From a bacterium (GTDB taxonomy: Bacteria > UBA8248), in the NCBI GenBank assembly GCA_965219955.1, contig OZ244799.1, positions 3,680,001 to 3,744,000 of the forward strand: DNA of 64,000 nucleotides, written 5' to 3'. Positions 9,281-55,165 of the stretch are shown here, piece by piece. Numbering within the stretch: the first letter of the stretch is position 1; every line of letters begins with the position of its first letter. The translations under genes were made by a program, and so were the position numbers. The notes under the pieces were generated by a model. That model saw only the letters and a list, made by a program, of their open reading frames with translations. It made no database searches and was not told where the DNA came from.

Positions 9281-9547
9281 TTTTTTCCCTTCTCTATGCA
9301 TCAAATGTACTGGCGGCAACAAACACCACATCACTGGTTTTAGATATACCAAAGTTCCATCTGTGTGAAAATCGGCAAATAGCTGAAAAAAGCTTGATTA
9401 TTGTTTTGTGCAGATTCAATTGGCGGGAATGGCGTTATTCTCGGGCCGATCACATCGACGCGGGGCGAGTGGAGGGATATTCTCTCCACCGTCAGGAAGA
9501 ATCCGGCCACGGCGTCACCCTGGAGAGTTTCTTGAAATGATGAACGC

Positions 9548-48455: not shown

Positions 48456-49613
48456 CTATTGTTTATATGCCCCGAAAGCGCCGATGAAGCTTCGGAGTTC
48501 ATCGTCTGTTTTCCCCCCGAACGTCCCGGCGATGGAAGCGGGTTGATCGGCCGCGCTCGCGCCGTTTCCGAATAACTTTCCGCCCCACCTGCCCGAGTAG
48601 CCGTTCGCGCTGGTGCCGCCCCTGAAATTCCCGCCTTGTCCAGTTCCGCTCGCTTGCATAATATTTGCGGACTCCAGCGTTAGGTCGGGCAGGGCAACGC
48701 CGCCATCCGTCCTGCCTTCCGTGGCACGTCCTGAGACGGTTCCCATCTCGGTCGAATCGCCGAAATTGGCTTCGAGGCTCACTTTAGCGGTGAAATTGTC
48801 GTATACCGGAGTAGCATCGGCGTTCGCCTTCATCATGTGTGTCCCGATCGCAGGACCCTCGTAGGCCGCCGTACCCGTGAGGACGGCGAGCCCGTCGTTG
48901 TTGAAGGGGTCGTTGCCGCTTGCCGCGCCGCCTAGCGTGAAACTGCCGCTGAATTCTCCAGTGTTTGAGTCCTTGAAAATATACAACCATGTTCCCAGGC
49001 TCAGATAATCCGCATCCCCGGTATTTTCGATGTCGGAATAGGCGTCCCAATTGAAAATGCCGTTGGATGACTCGCCGTGGACTTCCACCCCCTTCCAGCC
49101 CGCCGCCGGGACGCCGTCCAGCCTGTTTACCGATACATTCGGGTTTGTTGTGCTCGTGCTAAACGTTTGGCCGCTTCTTGTGTTTAGTCGCGTGTACGTG
49201 AAATGGAGTTCCCCGTTCTCGATAAACTCTGGAACGTAGGTAAATGAATCTAAGGTTCGGCCATCGAAAGAGTATGACGATTGCGTGGTGCTGGCGACTC
49301 CCTCGTTCAGCCATCCGGATGCTCTCGACCCAGCGGCTCTCAGTATGCGTATCGCCGCGCCGTTCGCCAGTTGCGGATTCTCATTGACTTCTTTCAGTAA
49401 AGATCCTGCGCGCATCGGCTGTTGCGGTGGCGTAGAACCGCCGCCGGTTCCACCGCCGGGCATCGGGTCCGGCGGCGGCATCACGGCGGCGCCGCCCCCA
49501 CCGCCACCGCCCCCACCGCAGCCCGCCAGCACGAGGGTGCAAACCAGCGTGAAGGTGAGCAGCAAAGATGAAAGTGCTGTTTGTTCCTTGAGTTGCTTTC
49601 TTGCTTTTGTCAT
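48456..49613 (-). CDS. Surface lipoprotein, TbpB/transferrin-binding-like C-terminal beta-barrel
   Basis: Lipobox LAGC plus poly-Gly/Pro linker; DYLSLGTW, GTAAYEG.AIG, L.ANFG, W.GKLFG, P.SIAGTFG, FIGAFGA. Confidence 0.8.
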   Translation of the reverse strand: MTKARKQLKEQTALSSLLLTFTLVCTLVLAGCGGGGGGGGGAAVMPPPDPMPGGGTGGGSTPPQQPMRAGSLLKEVNENPQLANGAAIRILRAAGSRASGWLNEGVASTTQSSYSFDGRTLDSFTYVPEFIENGELHFTYTRLNTRSGQTFSTSTTNPNVSVNRLDGVPAAGWKGVEVHGESSNGIFNWDAYSDIENTGDADYLSLGTWLYIFKDSNTGEFSGSFTLGGAASGNDPFNNDGLAVLTGTAAYEGPAIGTHMMKANADATPVYDNFTAKVSLEANFGDSTEMGTVSGRATEGRTDGGVALPDLTLESANIMQASGTGQGGNFRGGTSANGYSGRWGGKLFGNGASAADQPASIAGTFGGKTDDELRSFIGAFGAYKQ

Positions 49614-49629
49614 TTCGACTCCCTCCAAT

Positions 49630-51069
49630 TGTGGAAAGCGGCGATCCGTCCGGCCGCAGATAAACCCGGCTTCGTCGCCACAAAGTCACGATTGAAGAGA
49701 GATGGATTCCCCGCCCGTTCCGCTCTCCAGGGGATGGAGAGAGGCTTCTATCCGGCGGGTAACCAGGAAACGTGCATCGTGGTTTTGTGGCAACAGCAAT
49801 GATCTTTGAAAACAACCGAAATGTCAAATGCTTGATTCATAAGGACGAACCGCCGTCGTGAGATGGCTGCCGCTTCCTGGGTGGTGGAAATTTCGGGGGA
49901 ATTCCCTGTGTTCGTTGCTGGAGATTTCCGGGAAATCGCGTGCAAGCAAGAATCAAGCTTTTTTCAGCAATGTTGTCGGTTTTCACATAAGTCGACTTTT
50001 GGAAGAATGTGTTTCGGTAAATTCAAGTTCCGCTCTCCAGGGGATGGAGAGAGGCTTCTATCCGGCGGGTAACCTAGAAACGAGCATCGTGGTTTTGTGG
50101 CAACAGGAGTGATCGGTGAAAACCGCCGGAATGTCAAATTCTTGATCCATAAGGACGAACCGCTGTCGTGAGATGTCTGCCGCCTCCCGGGTGGTGGAAA
50201 TTTCGGGGGAATCGCCTGCGTTCGTTGCCGGAGATTTCCGGGAAATCGCGTGCAAACAAGAGTCAAGCTTTTTTCAGCTATTTGTCCATTTTCACACAGG
50301 TCGACTTTTGGGAGAATGTGTTTCGCCGGATTCAGAATGAATTGAACGGGCGGGTCCATTATCCGGCGAAAAGGGTTGCTCCCCGGACTGTAGACGCTCC
50401 GGGCTGTTTGCCACAAACCACGATCGAAGAGATGGGCGCCCGCCTGTTCCGGCCCTCGGGAAACCGGGGGCCGTCATGTATTCAGTAGGCGGCATGTTCT
50501 CCGGATTTGATGAATGGACGTGTCTGTTTTCCGATGAAAAGGTTCCGCATCGGATCGATTCATTTTGTTTTCATGTCAATGAGAGAGGGCTGTTCGCCGG
50601 ACCGCGGACGCAGTCGGGCTGTTTGCCACAAAAACCACGATCGAAGAGATGGGTTTCCCGCCTATTCCGGCTCTCTTACGTCCAGTCGTTCAACCTGGAT
50701 CAATGAGGCCGTGTTGTATTCAGCGGGCAGCCCGAACGGGCTGACTGCCGTGGTTTTTGTGGCAAGGAAATGATCGGACATGACAACTGGCTTGTCAAAC
50801 GCGGGTGGACAAGGGGAGACGGGGGGACGTCGGAGTTTTTGTCGTTTCTCGAATGACGAGAAAGGCGGCGATTCGCCCGGCCACGGAAGCAGTCGCGCCT
50901 TTTGCCACAAAAATCACGATTCAGGAGATGAGTGTCCTGCCTTTCCATCTCCAGGGGGATGGAGATACGTCCTGTATTCGGCGGCTGCTTGGGTGGCGGC
51001 TGGTTTGAAGCTGTGTACTCGTGGTTTTGTCGCAAGAGAAATGATCGAACAAGAAATTCTGGATGTCAA
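49630..51069 (-). ncRNA. Tandem array of five promoter plus putative structured-RNA units (two partial)
   Basis: Minus-strand TTGACA at 49822-27, 50132-37, 50574-79, 50793-98 and 51064-69, each 17 bp from GATCAT/GATCAC/GATCCG. Followed by GCCACAAAACCACGAT...ATCGTGGTTTTGTGGC stems. RNA status is inferred. Confidence 0.55.
49717..50325. repeat. 310-bp-period tandem direct duplication
   Basis: 49717-~50015 aligns at high identity with 50027-~50325. Confidence 0.9.
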
Positions 51070-51163
51070 ACAAAATCGTGCGAGGGGGCGACGGCGCTTG
51101 AAGGAGACGGGCAAGGAATTACGCTCTCATATTTTTCTCGTACTCGGCAAACTCTCTCTCATC

Positions 51164-51239
51164 GAGGGTGTTGAAAAACCCCTCGTCGGGGGCATCGCTT
51201 TTACCCTTTTTGGTCTAGGGGGCTTTTTCAACAACCCTC
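51164..51239. mobile_element. 76-bp miniature inverted-repeat element
   Basis: GAGGGTGTTGAAAAACCC ... GGCTTTTTCAACAACCCTC; same end family as 1-205. Confidence 0.5.
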
Positions 51240-51400
51240 CCTCCCCGGTCGGCAGCCCCTCCCTCCCCGGTCGGCGAACCCTCCCTCCCCGGTCGGGTTC
51301 GACCCCACCATTGACACCGCTCCTCCCGCGTGAAAGCATCGGGGAAACTTTCATGGAATGGATGGATGCCGCCTCCCGCCTCTCGATAAGGAGGGCAAAG

Positions 51401-51997
51401 ATGATTCGGCGTATCGCTCGGTGTGCGGCCGCGGCATGTCTGGCGGTTTTTGCGGCGCTCGCGTTTTCTCCGCATCAGGCGCAAGGCATGGAAAAGCAAG
51501 TCGTCTTCATCAAGGCGTTTTATCCCCTGGATGAGCCGAGGTTTCACTGCATCGACATCCCGGGGCACCGCGACCGCGTGAGAACCACAGCCGCCCTTCT
51601 CGTGCACACCTGCAAGGAGGGCATCTGGAACCTCGATGGGCAGTTCGACCCCGCCGCCGTGGGGAAGGGCCAGCTCCGGATGCCCGAATACGACTTGTGC
51701 GTCGCGGCTGCTGCGGCAACCGACGGCGCGAAGCTCGTGCTCGAAAAATGCGGCGGCGCGGCCCTCCAGAACTGGCGTTTCGAGAACTACCGCCTGAGCT
51801 TGAAGGCGCATCCGGACAAGTGCATCACCATCGGTCCCGAGCCGTCGCGCCTCACGCGGGGCGGGCGCAGGCTGCCGAGCCGCCACATGGCGCGCTCCCT
51901 GGCCCTCGGGACGTGTTCGGAAGATGCGCTCGAGAGACAGCTATGGCGGCTGGAAAAACCCATGCAGCGCACCGGCTCCATCATGCCCTTCAAGTAG
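51401..51997 (+). CDS. Secreted ricin-B (beta-trefoil) lectin-like protein
   Basis: Signal peptide; CIDIPG, LCV, QNW, KCIT, QLW repeats; AAGGAGG RBS. Confidence 0.8.
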   Translation: MIRRIARCAAAACLAVFAALAFSPHQAQGMEKQVVFIKAFYPLDEPRFHCIDIPGHRDRVRTTAALLVHTCKEGIWNLDGQFDPAAVGKGQLRMPEYDLCVAAAAATDGAKLVLEKCGGAALQNWRFENYRLSLKAHPDKCITIGPEPSRLTRGGRRLPSRHMARSLALGTCSEDALERQLWRLEKPMQRTGSIMPFK

Positions 51998-52033
51998 GGT
52001 GAGACGCCCCTGCAAATGGATGCCTGAATCGCC

Positions 52034-52290
52034 GTCATTCCGGCGCATGCCGGAATCTAGGCGGGCGGGAATGGAAAAAAGCTATCATTCGGCGCTCCGA
52101 TCCGAGCGGCGGAATTCTCTCGCCTCCAGGTTTTCGCATCGGCTCTGGATTCCGGCATGCGCCGGAATGACGAATCATAGCCACGCTCGTCATGTGGGAG
52201 AATTTCGACCGTAGGGGCGGCCCCCCGTGGCCGCCCGTATTGAGGGGGTGCGCTTCATCAGGACAGGCACAGGGGCCTGTCCCTGCCATA
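52034..52290. repeat. REP/BIME-like cluster
   Basis: Inverted GTCATTCCGGCGCATGCCGGAATC pair (52034, 52146); GTAGGGGCGGCCCCCCGTGGCCGCCC; GGACAGGCACAGGGGCCTGTCC. Confidence 0.8.
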
Positions 52291-52551
52291 TGATGCGAAG
52301 CTCATCATTCGTTAGGTTTTTCGATGTCACGACGAGGAGGACTCACGCCATGTTTTTCCGCAAAAACACGTCCACGAACAAACCATCTGCTTTCACGCCG
52401 GCGCCGCTCCTGGCGCTGGGGCCGGTGGGCTGCGGCGAGGCGTCTCGCGGGCGGGATTTCCTTGAGGACGCGTGCAATCGCTCCAGAAATTCTCCTCATA
52501 TAAGATGCGGCAAGAATTGCGCCGCTGGCGCATCTTCCTTTTTTTGTAGTC

Positions 52552-52730
52552 TTGACATATCCCATCTCATATCCCATCATTTTTGAAGCCACAAAAACTG
52601 CACGATCTCTGTTTGTTCTCTGAAGATGACGTTTTCTCTCCGCTGGGGAGCCAAACCACCTCTTCAATCGTGGTTTCTGTGGCGAAGAAGCCGAGTTGAT
52701 TCGTGGTCAGTTGAATCGCCTCTTCCCGCC
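52552..52730 (+). promoter_or_regulatory. Sixth promoter-leader unit, upstream of the autotransporter lipoprotein
   Basis: TTGACA 52552-57, 17 bp, CATCAT 52575-80; stem GCCACAAAAACTGCACGAT (52588) / ATCGTGGTTTCTGTGGC (52667-83). Confidence 0.7.
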
Positions 52731-52747
52731 ATCGAGGAGAAGGAACA

Positions 52748-55165
52748 GTGATCAAATCGAGAAGACAGCTTTACCGAAAAACATCTTTTTTGTTCATTTT
52801 ATTCTCACTTGCGTTATCCTTCGTCTTCGCGCTTTCGGGCTGCGGCGGAGGTGGCGGCGGCCCGACAACGGGCGCCCCGCCCGCCACGATGCCGGACCCA
52901 CCCGCCACGATGCCGGACCCGCCGGACGAGCCGCAAGCCCCGGAAATCGAACGGAGCCCGGTCGTGGTCGCGCCCCATCCCGTGCTCCCGGTGGGCGCGT
53001 CGCTCCCGAGGGAGGACGTATATCTCTCCACGCGGCCGGGCGTGCGGCAGCGTGTCCTGCTCGCCAGGACGGCGAACGCAGGCGCAAAGGCCGTCATCCT
53101 CTTCACGGGCGGCGACGGAACGCCGATTACGGTCCCGCAGAATGGAGGCATCCGCCTCACCGGCAATTTCCTGGTGAGAAGCTCAGCGCTCTTCGCCGAA
53201 GCGGGCTTCATCACCGCGGTCGTCGAATTGCCCCTGGACACGTCGTCCGTGAACCGCAGCGTGAGCAACGCTTACAGGCAATCGCCGATGCACCACACGG
53301 ACATACGCGCCGTGGTGGATTTTCTGGTGAGCGAGGGCGCGCGCGAGGTGTACCTCATCGGCACGAGCCGGGGCACGCTGTCCGTCGCGTATCTGGCGAC
53401 CGTGATGGCGCACCCGAACGTCAGTGGCTACGTTCTCACGGCGACCCTGGCCGAGAACCCGCAGGCCGTCCGGTCTTATGCGCCTCGCATTACGGACCCC
53501 GTCCTGATGGTGCATCACACGGACGACGGTTGCCATGTCACGAGATACGCCGACGCCCAGGCCATATTCGATTCCATTCCGGCGGGCACGCGCAAGGAGT
53601 TCATCTCCGTGAGCGGAGGGAGTCCGCCGATAGACACGAATCCCTGCCAGGCGCGGGCGCAGCACGGGTTCCTGGGCAAGGAGCATGAGGCGGTGGGAGG
53701 CATCGTCGAGTGGATGAACACGGGAACTGTGACGGAGACGAACCTGCTCACGGCGGATGACGCGGCCGCACCGCAGGAGGCGTGGCTCGCGCGCTTCGGG
53801 CGCGCGGCGGCGGAGCACGTCACCGGGGCTATCGAAGACCGGCTGCGCGGAACGCCGAGCTCGCGTCTCACGCTCGGCGGTCAGGATATCGATCTGGCAG
53901 GCTCCCCCCTTCCGCTGGCGGACGCAGATTCCGGTGCGCGACTCGCCGAAGGCATATTCGATGAGCGCAGCGGGGAGGCTTTCGCGGGACGCGAGATGTC
54001 GATGAGCGAGTTGCTGCTGGCGAGTTCCTTTCACCTGGCCTCCGCTGAGGGAGAGGACGCCGGCGGGGGCTGGTCGTTCTGGGGCGGCGCGGCGCGCTCG
54101 GGCTTCGACGCGAAAGAGGGCGCGCTCGCGCTCGACGGCGACGTCACGACCGCCACGCTGGGCTTCGATTTCGAGCGCGAGCGGTGGCTGGCCGGCGTGG
54201 CGCTCTCGCGCAGCGCGGGCGAGGGTGAGTTCCGCATCGGCGGCAACTGCGCTTCGGGCTGCGGCGGCGATCTGGAGAGCACGCTCACCGGCGCCTATCC
54301 CTATGCGCGCTATCGCTTCAGCGAGCGCCTCTCGGCCTGGGGAATGCTAGGCCACGGGCGCGGCGAGTTGACGCTCACCACGGGGGGAGGGAGTCCCGCC
54401 GAGACCGACATCGAGATGAACATGGCGTCGCTGGGCGCGCGCGGCGTGCTGCTGCCCGCTTTGAGCAAGGGAGATTTCGAACTAGCCGTTCGCTCGGACG
54501 CGCTGATGACGTGGACGAGTTCCGATGAGACGGAAAGTCTCGCCGAGGCCGAAGCGGAGACGAGCCGCCTGAGGCTCACGCTCGAAGCCTCGCGTGAGAT
54601 CGGGCTCGACTCGGGCGCGAGTCTCACGCCCTCGCTGGAAGTGGGCTTGCGCTACGACGGGGGCGACGCCGAGACGGGAGCCGGCGTCGAGGTCGGCGGC
54701 GGGCTTCGCTACGCGGGTTCGGGCTTCACGGTACGGGTGAACGCCCGCGGCCTGCTCGCGCATGCCGACAGCGATTATGAGGAGTGGGGCGTGAGCGGCT
54801 CGGTGCGCCTCGCTCCGGGCGAGGGGGGGCGCGGCTTGTCCATGCGGCTGGGTTCGTCCTGGGGCGCCCCGGCGGGTGGAGCGAACGGGCTCTGGAGCGG
54901 GCGCAGCGCGGTGGGGCTGCTCAAGAGCGGAGAATTCGACCCGGGCGCGCGCCTCGACGCGGAGGTGGGCTACGGTCTGGACGGCATGGGCGGCCTCCTC
55001 ACCCCCTACGGCGGCGTGTCGGTCTCGGAAGCGGCGCAGAGCTACCGCGCGGGCGGACGCTTCCGTCTCGGGGAGCGTTTGAGCATGAGCCTGGAGGGCG
55101 AGCGCCGCGAAGGTGCGAATGTCGTCGACCACGGCCTGGCGCTTCACGGCTCCCTGCGCTGGTAG
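52748..55165 (+). CDS. Lipoprotein with alpha/beta hydrolase passenger and C-terminal autotransporter-like beta-domain
   Basis: LSGC lipobox; GTSRG nucleophile elbow, HH.DDGC, HGFLG; WLARFGR linker; TPSLEVGLRYDGGDAETG; terminal LRW. Confidence 0.85.
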   Translation: MIKSRRQLYRKTSFLFILFSLALSFVFALSGCGGGGGGPTTGAPPATMPDPPATMPDPPDEPQAPEIERSPVVVAPHPVLPVGASLPREDVYLSTRPGVRQRVLLARTANAGAKAVILFTGGDGTPITVPQNGGIRLTGNFLVRSSALFAEAGFITAVVELPLDTSSVNRSVSNAYRQSPMHHTDIRAVVDFLVSEGAREVYLIGTSRGTLSVAYLATVMAHPNVSGYVLTATLAENPQAVRSYAPRITDPVLMVHHTDDGCHVTRYADAQAIFDSIPAGTRKEFISVSGGSPPIDTNPCQARAQHGFLGKEHEAVGGIVEWMNTGTVTETNLLTADDAAAPQEAWLARFGRAAAEHVTGAIEDRLRGTPSSRLTLGGQDIDLAGSPLPLADADSGARLAEGIFDERSGEAFAGREMSMSELLLASSFHLASAEGEDAGGGWSFWGGAARSGFDAKEGALALDGDVTTATLGFDFERERWLAGVALSRSAGEGEFRIGGNCASGCGGDLESTLTGAYPYARYRFSERLSAWGMLGHGRGELTLTTGGGSPAETDIEMNMASLGARGVLLPALSKGDFELAVRSDALMTWTSSDETESLAEAEAETSRLRLTLEASREIGLDSGASLTPSLEVGLRYDGGDAETGAGVEVGGGLRYAGSGFTVRVNARGLLAHADSDYEEWGVSGSVRLAPGEGGRGLSMRLGSSWGAPAGGANGLWSGRSAVGLLKSGEFDPGARLDAEVGYGLDGMGGLLTPYGGVSVSEAAQSYRAGGRFRLGERLSMSLEGERREGANVVDHGLALHGSLRW

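Follow-up and report, generated by a model that had tools for sequence, protein, structure and literature searches.

Organization of the locus

The window, a 64,000-nucleotide stretch from the genome of a sponge-associated bacterium, carries six units of one RNA family stacked before two divergent surface-lipoprotein genes, each unit with its own promoter. Five units lie on the minus strand (U5, U4, U3, U2 and U1) and one on the plus strand (UP); their parts are listed in Table 1. All six units described in the first-pass annotation were recovered, each with an exact -35 hexamer and a 17-nt spacer, and, as described there, a ribosome-binding site (RBS) and a coding sequence follow only the last unit in each direction, U1 and UP. 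The two lipoproteins, P0001 and P0002, match no Pfam family. Orthologues of P0001 stand behind the array in related species, orthologues of P0002 (751-851 aa) occupy the equivalent position in loci L161 and L162, and paralogous lipoproteins behind other copies of the RNA give weak TbpB-barrel or Slam-lipoprotein matches. A counterpart of UP is found in the equivalent divergent position in locus L004.

Table 1. Features of the array locus. Positions are those of the window; R1 and R2 are scores against the two covariance models; P1, closing stem; P2 and P3, inner helices; J, junction block.
Feature	Position	Strand	Remarks
U5 (degenerate orphan unit)	50841..51069	-	no CDS behind; R1 114.1 bits, R2 70.5 bits
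U5 promoter	51069-51041	-	exact consensus -35 hexamer, 17-nt spacer, -10-like hexamer
U5 P1 arms	51035-51019 with 50919-50902	-	mismatches present (read by eye)
U5 inner hairpin	50969-50945	-	
U5 conserved tail	50901-50841	-	two small hairpins
U4 (best-formed orphan)	50587..50798	-	no CDS behind; R1 146.6 bits, R2 134.8 bits
U4 promoter	50798-50770	-	exact -35 hexamer, 17-nt spacer, -10-like hexamer
U4 P1 arms	50765-50749 with 50639-50623	-	17 perfect pairs
U4 pseudoknot strands	50735-50728 / 50621-50614	-	
U4 P2	50727-50723 / 50661-50657	-	
U4 P3 hairpin	50711-50668	-	local insertion inside
U4 J	50656-50640	-	
U3 (unit without P1 5' arm)	50373..50579	-	R1 58.9 bits, R2 62.6 bits
U3 promoter	50579-50551	-	exact -35 hexamer, 17-nt spacer, -10-like hexamer
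U3 P2	50492-50488 / 50443-50439	-	
U3 P3	50473-50450	-	
U3 J	50438-50423	-	
U3 P1 3' arm	50422-50408	-	sole P1 arm of U3
U3 pseudoknot 3' strand	50406-50399	-	
Region X (U3-U2 gap)	50138..50372	-	family unit absent; ~58-nt promoter-like module present
U2 (truncated unit)	50027..50137	-	promoter and 5' half of a unit
U2 promoter	50137-50109	-	exact -35 hexamer, 17-nt spacer, -10-like hexamer
U2 P1 5' arm	50103-50086	-	
U2 inner hairpin	50054-50030	-	U2 ends after it
U1 (CDS-proximal leader)	49614..49827	-	R1 125.1 bits, R2 87.1 bits
U1 promoter	49827-49799	-	exact -35 hexamer, 17-nt spacer, -10-like hexamer
U1 P1 arms	49793-49776 with 49692-49675	-	
U1 pseudoknot strands	49767-49760 / 49672-49665	-	
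U1 P2	49759-49754 / 49715-49710	-	
U1 P3	49744-49720	-	
U1 J	49709-49693	-	C/U-rich
U1 RBS	49626-49619	-	
Lipoprotein gene behind U1 (P0001, 385 aa)	48456..49613	-	lipobox, glycine-rich linker
UP (degenerate leader unit)	52552..52747	+	P2 3' strand and its loop missing; R1 69.4 bits, R2 45.3 bits
UP promoter	52552-52580	+	exact -35 hexamer, 17-nt spacer, -10-like hexamer
UP P1 arms	52588-52606 with 52667-52683	+	
UP pseudoknot-like strands	52607-52614 / 52688-52695	+	
UP hairpin	52630-52652	+	
UP J	52653-52666	+	
UP RBS	52734-52744	+	
Lipoprotein gene behind UP (P0002, 805 aa)	52748..55165	+	

The six-unit arrangement is real and lies far beyond chance. The exact -35 hexamer occurs 639 times on the two strands of the 4.28-Mb genome, and the composite pattern (hexamer, 17 nt and the first four -10-like bases) ten times, six of them in the array locus. 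A consensus promoter scan returned 4 sites against 1.4 ± 1.2 in shuffles. The arm motif of the closing stem, with up to two errors, has 45 matches in the genome, nine of them inside the 3-kb locus; in the window it was found five times (0.50 expected), a count reached in none of 100 shuffles. When the units were folded singly, U4 (z -6.2) and U1 (z -4.9) did clearly better than shuffled sequences, and UP (z -2.35), U5 (z -1.9) and U3 (z -1.1) less distinctly so.

Paired arms of the closing stem were located in U5, U4, U1 and UP, and U3 proved to hold the 3' arm alone, in agreement with its first description as a unit without a 5' arm. U4 is the top scorer of the whole family. Several of the local units are imperfect members, since U5 and UP lack a canonical P2 or pseudoknot and U3 lacks one arm; in U5 it is the canonical pseudoknot strand that is missing (alignment read by eye). 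The design first ascribed to the units needs amending in that U5 and UP are degenerate members, which miss parts of the inner arm. U2 had been taken for a truncated duplicate of U1, and a 310-bp tandem duplication (49717-50026 and 50027-50335; 255 nt at 91% identity) bears this out: U2 is the truncated copy, giving a partial match to model R1 (30.4 bits, model positions 44-86), and on sequence comparison it is a recent partial duplicate. Short-read contigs from other samples break at the U1/U2 duplication and are identical otherwise.

Structure and covariation

Three elements make up the fold. A long stem (P1) closes the structure, the two helices of an inner arm (P2-P3) carry two conserved purine-rich loops, and a pseudoknot helix (PK) joins the stretch just 5' of P2 with the stretch just 3' of P1. 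The closing stem had been recognized from the array; yet that picture was incomplete, as the stem is one of two long-range helices and PK had been overlooked. Covariation was assessed for a proposed structure of 36 pairs in 55 copies, which represent four phyla or more. In these alignments, which were fitted by model to P1-P3 and contain related sequences (both of which inflate pair counts), 92.8% of the cells pair, a share that falls to 67.3% in shuffles and to 33-43% when the partners are slid. Under the same reservation, double changes occupy 450 cells (against 127 ± 9) and compensatory changes on both sides are present in 33 of the 36 pairs. The stems are thus rich in the double changes whose absence would have spoken against an RNA. 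A narrower set of 42 copies gave an equivalent picture. PK has 8 pairs, with 92-94% of the cells paired in CG/UG/UA alternation, and is absent from both covariance models; the slid controls and this unmodelled helix argue against an artefact in the pair counts. The 3' arm of P1 pairs with the strand upstream of the core in 92.4% of the cells (55 copies). Between non-array loci the sequence of P1 is unrelated and its complementarity is kept, and the internal loops of P2-P3 are conserved in nearly all 55 copies. G-U pairs, which are A-C mismatches on the opposite strand, are frequent on the strand of the gene, so that the signal belongs to the RNA of that strand. In most copies a hairpin, read by eye, overlaps the 3' strand of PK.

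P2a, a 3-bp helix in which the G-run 5' of P2 paired with a C-run after P2, was part of the first structure model and was dropped because it is confined to the genus, whereas the G-run pairs with the stretch after P1 (as PK) in all phyla. RNAalifold on a plain MAFFT alignment gave only 13 pairs because the arms were misaligned. A coding reading of the short sense and antisense ORFs that overlap the units was rejected by eye, since the indels inside the units are not multiples of three.

Distribution and gene context

A covariance-model search of this genome and its relatives, as suggested by the first-pass annotation, found 12 full-length copies here and many more elsewhere; a sigma-70-type promoter in front and a gene for a lipoprotein or secreted protein behind are features of most copies examined. 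Of the 22 further genomes in the genus 20 carry the RNA, as do 24 of the 51 sampled from the phylum, where it extends to three more genera. Five MAGs of other phyla (alphaproteobacterial, gammaproteobacterial and acidobacterial), chosen by a pattern match, hold 2-6 copies each; in the order of one of them 5 of 23 genomes are positive. Copy number reaches 16 per genome. A sigma-70-like promoter lies within 46 nt upstream of 33 of the 55 copies and in none of 55 control windows. The downstream ORF starts mostly 10-50 nt past the unit and encodes, as judged by eye, a lipobox or signal-peptide-like N-terminus. Nine of the 22 downstream proteins scanned carry Pfam families, all of envelope or secreted types: TbpB barrel (two), subtilase, CsgG, Sel1, DUF4875 (two), 17-kDa antigen and GH113. 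The genes served have export in common and no shared pathway, and hence give no pointer to a ligand. One copy type is nearly identical across the genus; at two of the three loci of this type examined (L178, L183) no ORF of at least 60 aa starts within 600 nt, and at the third (L165) an 89-aa ORF begins at +539. As the same RNA stands before genes for exported proteins in several phyla, the family is probably a new and widespread gene-control element.

Conservation of the array

Seven related species have arrays of 2-5 units in syntenic position. Across 8 species (this one and the 7 relatives) the promoter hexamers and the whole RNA of the U4-type unit are about 90% or more identical, whereas its flanks and promoter spacer are 20-50% identical. 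Orthologues of U5 in 6 related species conserve the promoter (including its spacer), the inner hairpin and the tail. Units of the U4 and U5 types are gene-less in all 7-8 species examined. Hexamers and RNA kept far better than spacers and flanks are the signature of purifying selection, under which, on these alignments, the orthologous orphan units stand. In locus L161 the third unit is followed by a lipoprotein gene of its own and the fourth by another, and in a related strain 3274 nt separate U3 from U4. The arms of P1 have nearly one sequence in all paralogous units within the array, the 3' arm being the more conserved (alignments, by eye); a plain cis-acting riboswitch does not account for this constancy.

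Relation to known RNAs

The family is absent from Rfam 15, and a gathering-threshold scan of the window gave 0 matches, in accord with the original view of a new RNA family that is no known riboswitch. This view needs one amendment, a kinship below threshold to sRNA-Xcc1 (RF02221). E-value scans of the locus and 45 further loci returned chance miRNA and snoRNA matches and sub-threshold RF02221 only. RF02221 itself matched neither the locus nor the genome as a whole at E up to 10; its best scores on related copies were 28.1 (L093), 24.3 and 23.5 bits (L177), against a gathering score of 53. In 3 of the 5 genomes of other phyla, the best genome-wide matches to RF02221 fall on copies of the array RNA family.

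An 88-nt small RNA of Xanthomonas campestris, sRNA-Xcc1 resides in integron cassettes, on genomic islands and in phages. In the cmscan alignment, its G+C-rich outer stem corresponds to PK and its first hairpin, with two conserved A/U-rich internal loops, to P2-P3. Its second local hairpin is absent from the array family, where the stretch aligns poorly and with non-canonical marks, and is replaced by the 3' arm of P1, a stem of 15-20 bp. On this alignment the core of the family resembles a distant relative of the sRNA-Xcc1 fold, in which the second hairpin would have been opened and completed by an upstream strand to give P1; because the partner strand in P1 lies upstream of the Xcc1-like core, the outer stem becomes a pseudoknot. 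The array RNA further differs from sRNA-Xcc1 in its length (about 150 nt), in having no U-tract after the outer helix, where sRNA-Xcc1 ends in one, and in its neighbours, which are exported envelope proteins of marine and sponge-associated bacteria.

Tandem near-identical small RNA genes, each with its own promoter, are known in Qrr1-5, LhrC1-5 and NsiR1, and these arrays resemble the locus as tandem, self-promoted siblings. To our knowledge their members are not also cis leaders of an adjacent gene, and the fold is not shared. The c-di-GMP-I (GEMM) riboswitch stands before surface and secreted-protein genes, and glycine aptamers occur in tandem. Such multi-copy or tandem riboswitches share with the family a covarying 5'-leader fold, many copies, heterogeneous envelope or secreted-protein genes and occasional stacking; the array differs in the separate promoter of each stacked copy and has no sequence or model similarity to them. 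c-di-GMP was considered as the ligand: the genome encodes a single GGDEF protein and gives no match to RF01051 (c-di-GMP-I), which speaks neither for nor against it.

Same-orientation placement upstream of genes is shared with homologues of sRNA-Xcc1, which, according to two reports, lie upstream of symE (bioRxiv 10.1101/2025.06.18.660453) and of an ORF6N gene (10.1101/2020.03.17.996009). In Xylella fastidiosa Temecula1 a genomic island holds five RF02221 homologues (sXF1-sXF5) about 380 bp apart, and transcripts of all seven homologues were reported to be detected there (PMC12189769). As described there, sXF1-sXF5 are like the array in being sibling copies on one strand, a few hundred bases apart, with no genes between them. 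They belong to RF02221 proper and measure about 87 nt, unlike the array units, and the portion of PMC12189769 consulted reports no individual promoters, leader role or lipoprotein genes for them; the present array, as distinct from what is described there, has a leader next to a CDS as its last unit and is kept in several species. The motif was not found in the main texts of the literature searched, and motif lists supplementary to large RNA-discovery papers may include it.

Proposed function and alternatives

The units are best explained as copies of an uncatalogued structured 5'-leader RNA of about 150 nt, which would begin at or beside the transcription start of a sigma-70-type promoter and of which U1 and UP would be the leaders of the two divergent lipoprotein genes. 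A riboswitch-like leader in which J competes for the RBS, with the promoter-equipped orphans made as separate RNAs, is given a probability of roughly two in three. The covarying, aptamer-like structure lies in the 5' leader between promoter and start codon, the generic setting of a riboswitch. In array-type leaders the C/U-rich J, between P2 and the 3' arm of P1, can pair with the RBS, so that the compact fold (P1 and PK) and the pairing of J with this site should be mutually exclusive; a stabilizer of the fold, be it a small ligand or a protein, would then set translation. J of U1 is complementary to the RBS region over 11 pairs (by eye), the minimum-energy fold pairs the RBS with J in all five of the array-type proximal leaders examined from relatives, and compensating changes between J and the RBS region are seen by eye in the alignment of two species. 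In the minimum-energy fold of U1 itself the RBS pairs with the stretch just upstream and not with J. In non-array copies the predicted partner of the RBS varies and is mostly not J, and the pairing was not retained as a rule for the whole family, being unsupported outside the array type. U5, U4 and U3, each a promoter without a gene that selection appears to have kept, most likely give rise to separate RNAs of this type, or else form part of longer nested leaders. The array strand has no predicted intrinsic terminator, which counts against separate orphan RNAs.

Should the element prove to be a riboswitch or a leader that responds to a protein, it would represent a new class, and one whose comparative backing, from four or more phyla, is unusually strong. 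It would control surface proteins that uncultured sponge symbionts show their host, the proteins concerned being TbpB/Slam-type surface lipoproteins, Sel1-repeat proteins, a subtilase and a CsgG-like protein, and would open an otherwise inaccessible regulatory signal to testing in vitro. sRNA-Xcc1, a common annotation in plant pathogens, phages and integrons, also gains a structural relative and a context from the family. A conserved array of self-promoted copies is rare and could show cis leaders turning into trans-acting small RNA genes.

A protein may be the partner instead: the loops and the 3' arm of P1 would bind a regulator of envelope mRNAs, with U5, U4, U3 and the ORF-less copy type as sponges, after the model of CsrB and RsmZ, which titrate CsrA. 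This reading, a serious one though unlikely, would suit the self-promoted orphan units conserved in 7 related species, the genus-wide near-identity of the ORF-less copies, a 3' arm kept within the array beyond what pairing alone requires (by eye), and a regulon united by cell destination and not by metabolic pathway. No candidate regulator protein was identified, however, and the likeness of the invariant loops to GGA-type CsrA sites does not extend to every copy. Deep covariation with a pseudoknot and invariant internal loops, across four phyla, is more typical of ligand-sensing RNAs. Rather unlikely, too, is a bolder form of the sensor reading, a phylum-spanning sensor RNA class that would govern the surface and secreted proteome of host-associated marine bacteria and whose array orphans would act in trans on both lipoprotein leaders in an RNA-only circuit. 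An orphan RNA could exchange P1 strands with the U1 and UP leaders or mask their RBS, which is conceivable because one P1 "address" and one anti-RBS block are common to every unit of the array, the opposite-strand unit included.

That U5, U4, U3 and U2 are relics, left functionless by gene loss from promoter-leader-lipoprotein cassettes, is improbable. The lipoprotein genes behind the third and fourth units of L161, the long U3-U4 interval of the related strain, the incomplete structures of U3, U5 and UP, and U2 as a plain by-product of the duplication would all fit such decay; against it stand the gene-less state of the U4 and U5 types in every species examined, the better conservation of orphan hexamers and RNA parts than of spacers and flanks, and the rank of U4 as the family's best-scoring member. 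A self-cleaving ribozyme or other non-regulatory structured RNA at the 5' end of the transcript is very improbable: invariant internal loops, a pseudoknot, several copies per genome, tandem order and neighbours without a pathway theme would be in keeping with it, yet no Rfam ribozyme matched the locus (E up to 10) or the further loci (E up to 1), and the strict place between promoter and RBS of exported-protein genes fits a regulator better. A DNA element, in which the arms would serve an invertible switch as recombination sites, form a paired operator or be the ends of a miniature transposon, can practically be discounted despite the perfect 17-bp inverted repeats 109 bp apart in U4 and the arm sequences kept within the array, since elsewhere the arms are wholly different yet complementary with many strand-specific G-U pairs, the promoter lies outside them, the inner helices and PK covary as well, and arm-motif matches beyond the locus are few and unrelated. 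Nor do the copies scatter as MITEs would, for they keep one orientation and a fixed position behind promoters and before exported-protein genes. Inversion between the stem arms, raised in the first-pass annotation, left no strand-changing joint in the array in contigs of four runs, a weak negative as contigs drop rare forms.

One further trace in the array concerns region X, whose promoter-like module recurs at positions 9349-9406 of the window and in related genomes (BLAST). In locus L061 the module stands directly before a unit, and in region X it is probably the remnant of the promoter of a further unit type.

Unit array and promoters

The first-pass annotation, which proposed a tandem stack of regulatory RNA units at this locus, is confirmed as an observation, and its reading is borne out in substance. 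The array units belong to a structured RNA family that is new and well supported; it is a relative of sRNA-Xcc1 but not a member of it. The family is best read as serving exported-protein genes as a promoter-proximal leader, and at this locus it has been multiplied into a conserved array.

When both strands were read, the five minus-strand units (U5, U4, U3, U2 and U1) and the single plus-strand unit (UP) were all recovered; U1 and UP are the leaders of two divergent lipoprotein genes, and U5, U4 and U3 are orphans that have a promoter and no gene. Location of the individual elements showed that every unit opens with the exact consensus -35 hexamer, followed after a 17-nt spacer by a -10-like hexamer. 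The long inverted repeat is likewise present as described, with its 5' arm 6-7 bases past the -10-like hexamer and the partner 95-140 nt downstream. U3 indeed lacks the 5' arm, and the truncated duplicate U2 is the product of a 310-bp tandem duplication. The unit pattern at the locus is beyond chance, since the whole genome (61% G+C) has the -35 hexamer only 639 times, both strands counted, 6 of the 10 genomic occurrences of the composite promoter pattern fall in the array locus, and the arm motif is enriched there as well. A separate promoter-like module, about 58 nt long, is present twice in the window (86% identity between the two copies); at least 12 related genomes have it at one locus or more (82-100% identity), and in one relative it lies directly upstream of a family unit.

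Coordinates of the units and of other features in the window and in the genome that holds it (C1 positions)
Feature	Position	Strand	Remark
Units U5 to U1	window 49.6-51.07 kb	minus	
Unit UP	window 52.55 kb	plus	
Promoter-like module	window 50254-50311		
Promoter-like module	window 9349-9406		
Stretch between U3 and U4 replaced in a related strain	window 50493/50587		93 nt
C-rich repeat	window 51233-51296		20-22 nt, three tandem copies
Ricin-B-lectin gene	window 51401-51997	plus	Pfam PF00652, E 2e-08
High-copy repeat	window 52028-52275		
Inverted-repeat pair	window 52033-52060 / 52145-52172		28 nt, 96% complementary
Tandem unit pair	C1:2358663-2359100		283 nt apart
Tandem unit pair	C1:1563892-1564692		about 650 nt apart
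Most conserved copy type	C1:3669343-3669501		about 10.5 kb before the window
GGDEF-domain protein	C1:3386817-3387266		

Distribution of the family

When relatives were searched with the array (BLAST) and with an HMM of the units, seven related species proved to have syntenic arrays, each of 2-5 units, and the array units sort into orthologous types across them. A covariance model built from 29 array units (R1) recovered full-length copies outside the array in the same genome, in which the inner core is conserved and the closing-stem sequences are wholly different yet complementary; with these copies the subject became an RNA family instead of a local repeat. One genome per species was scanned with a core pattern and the matches were filtered with R1, which recovered the genus and also gave weaker full-length matches in alphaproteobacterial, gammaproteobacterial and acidobacterial MAGs. 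With a second, general covariance model (R2), 12 copies were found in this genome; 20 of the 22 other genomes in its genus also carry the family, as do 24 of the 51 genomes sampled in the phylum (4 of 15 genera). Five MAGs of other phyla, preselected by a pattern hit, carry 2-6 copies each by R2, and the family is present in 5 of the 23 genomes searched from one alphaproteobacterial order. Sequencing runs containing at least one third of the window's sampled words come from four studies, labeled sponge metagenome, marine metagenome or with a coded organism. Tandem unit pairs occur at two more loci of this genome; the degenerate second unit of the more closely spaced pair leads into the gene of a 585-aa lipoprotein. 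One copy type, the most conserved in the family, has orthologues at loci such as L165, L178 and L183 and a strong promoter; in two of three loci looked at, no ORF of at least 60 aa starts within 600 nt. This copy type is a candidate stand-alone sRNA gene across the genus.

Structure and covariation

Fifty-five copies were aligned to R2 and 36 pairs were counted, comprising the modeled long closing stem (P1), the inner arm with two conserved loops (P2-P3), and a pseudoknot helix contained in neither model. In this alignment, which was fitted to P1-P3 and consists of related sequences, standard pairs occupy 92.8% of the cells, against 67.3% with shuffled partners and 33-43% with slid partners; 450 cells carry double changes, against 127 +/- 9, and the score for covariation reaches 0.656, against 0.206. 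Compensatory changes in the unit stems, on which the regulatory RNA reading had been made to depend, are present, 33 of the 36 pairs having changed on both sides. P1 is 92.4% paired though nearly all of its columns vary. In the pseudoknot helix, whose variable positions alternate between CG, UG and UA, the figure is 92-94%. A narrower alignment of 42 copies yielded 87.7% against 71.0%. The pair signal is probably no artefact, because the unmodeled pseudoknot helix and the slid-partner controls speak against one. The frequent G-U pairs on the gene strand point to an RNA of that strand, not to a DNA cruciform or protein operator. A 3-bp helix of the first structure model proved genus-specific, and the pseudoknot was put in its place.

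Relation to sRNA-Xcc1

As the first-pass annotation had supposed, the motif is not a known riboswitch: no family of Rfam 15 reached threshold anywhere in the window, the locus and the further loci scanned. The only recurring weak match is sRNA-Xcc1 (RF02221), which scores 28.1 bits against a copy from a gammaproteobacterium and 23.5 bits against one from the genus. In genome-wide searches the best RF02221 matches fell exactly on motif copies in three of the five other-phyla genomes (24-28 bits), and this genome gave no match at E values up to 10. In the cmscan alignment the outer stem of Xcc1 is the counterpart of the pseudoknot helix, and its first hairpin, both conserved loops included, is that of P2-P3. 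The second hairpin of Xcc1, however, has no counterpart; the corresponding stretch is the 3' arm of P1, whose partner strand lies upstream of the Xcc1-like core. Because the outer stem and first hairpin are shared and the second hairpin is replaced by the P1 arm, the motif is placed as a P1-extended, pseudoknotted relative of the Xcc1 fold, outside RF02221. Xcc1 itself is described as an 88-nt sRNA visible on Northern blots (PMC2996969), and is reported both in Xanthomonas integron cassettes, where it precedes symE (10.1101/2025.06.18.660453), and in APSE phages, where it precedes an ORF6N gene (10.1101/2020.03.17.996009). Five Xcc1 homologues, about 380 bp apart in a tandem cluster, are reported in Xylella (PMC12189769).

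Gene context

A sigma-70-like promoter lies at most 46 nt upstream in 33 of the 55 copies (27 by a stricter -35) and in none of 55 control windows placed 300 nt downstream. Downstream ORFs mostly start 10-50 nt past the unit, with lipobox or signal-peptide-like N-termini as judged by eye. Eight loci of this genome lead to five lipoproteins (the two of the window included), a 138-aa secreted protein, a small zinc-ribbon membrane protein and, at one conserved copy, no ORF. Of 22 downstream proteins, taken from the genus and from other phyla, Pfam named 9, all of envelope or secreted types, and several downstream lipoproteins gave weak or borderline matches to a TbpB beta-barrel or Slam-dependent lipoprotein model. 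No c-di-GMP-I riboswitch was found in the whole genome, and only one GGDEF-domain protein was found in it.

Conservation of the array

The order that recurs in relatives is U5 type, U4 type, a variable third unit, the CDS-proximal unit and then the lipoprotein gene. In one species a lipoprotein gene follows the third unit and a further lipoprotein gene follows a fourth; the U5 type is missing from one species. In the orphan U4 type, column-wise identity among orthologues is about 90% or higher in both promoter hexamers and throughout the RNA, P1 5' arm to pseudoknot 3' strand; it falls to 20-50% in the 45 upstream nucleotides, in the spacer and in the sequence past the tail. In the U5 type the promoter with its spacer, the inner hairpin and a tail carrying two small hairpins are retained; P1 is imperfect there, and the canonical pseudoknot strand is missing. 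Retention of these RNA and promoter parts, with divergence of the U4 flanks and spacer, argues for purifying selection on the orphan units rather than decay.

Across the family the sequence of P1 evolves freely. Within arrays, alignments inspected by eye show nearly one P1 sequence, better kept in the 3' arm than in the 5' arm, and the same J block (the C/U-rich junction between P2 and the P1 3' arm) in all paralogous units, UP on the opposite strand included. Duplication alone would not explain this sharing, since the arrays are old; it suggests that the units interact, or that a partner recognizes the shared sequence.

The array is reproduced in contigs of three other samples. In a related strain (run X7 contig, 90-95% identical) the stretch between U3 and U4 is replaced by 3274 other letters, and U4 has a shorter P3, 21 nt of the inner-hairpin insertion being absent.

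Proposed mechanism

The function that we infer for the family is regulatory, and a translational switch is favored. In 5 of 5 array-type proximal leaders taken from relatives, the ribosome-binding site is paired with J in the minimum-energy fold, and this pairing takes the place of P1. In U1 of the window, complementarity between J and the site extends over 11 pairs as judged by eye, but the computed optimum pairs the site with a stretch just upstream, not with J. Changes in J are matched by changes beside the ribosome-binding site in two species (orthologue alignment, by eye). Since J lies inside the P1/pseudoknot fold, the compact fold and masking of the site by J should be mutually exclusive; this exclusion, the J:site pairing and the matched changes favor a leader that would act as a translational switch. 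The pseudoknot 3' strand could form a local hairpin with the following bases in most copies (by eye). J-type complementarity was not seen in most non-array copies, and no terminators were predicted on the array strand.

Other features of the locus

A small, secreted Ricin-B-lectin gene sits between the array and UP, a place conserved in relatives, and has the C-rich repeat just upstream. Further toward UP, the segment that contains the inverted-repeat pair has a summed contig depth of 750-2700 in runs where its flanks have 12-70; it is a very high-copy repeat common to many community contigs, REP-like by reading.
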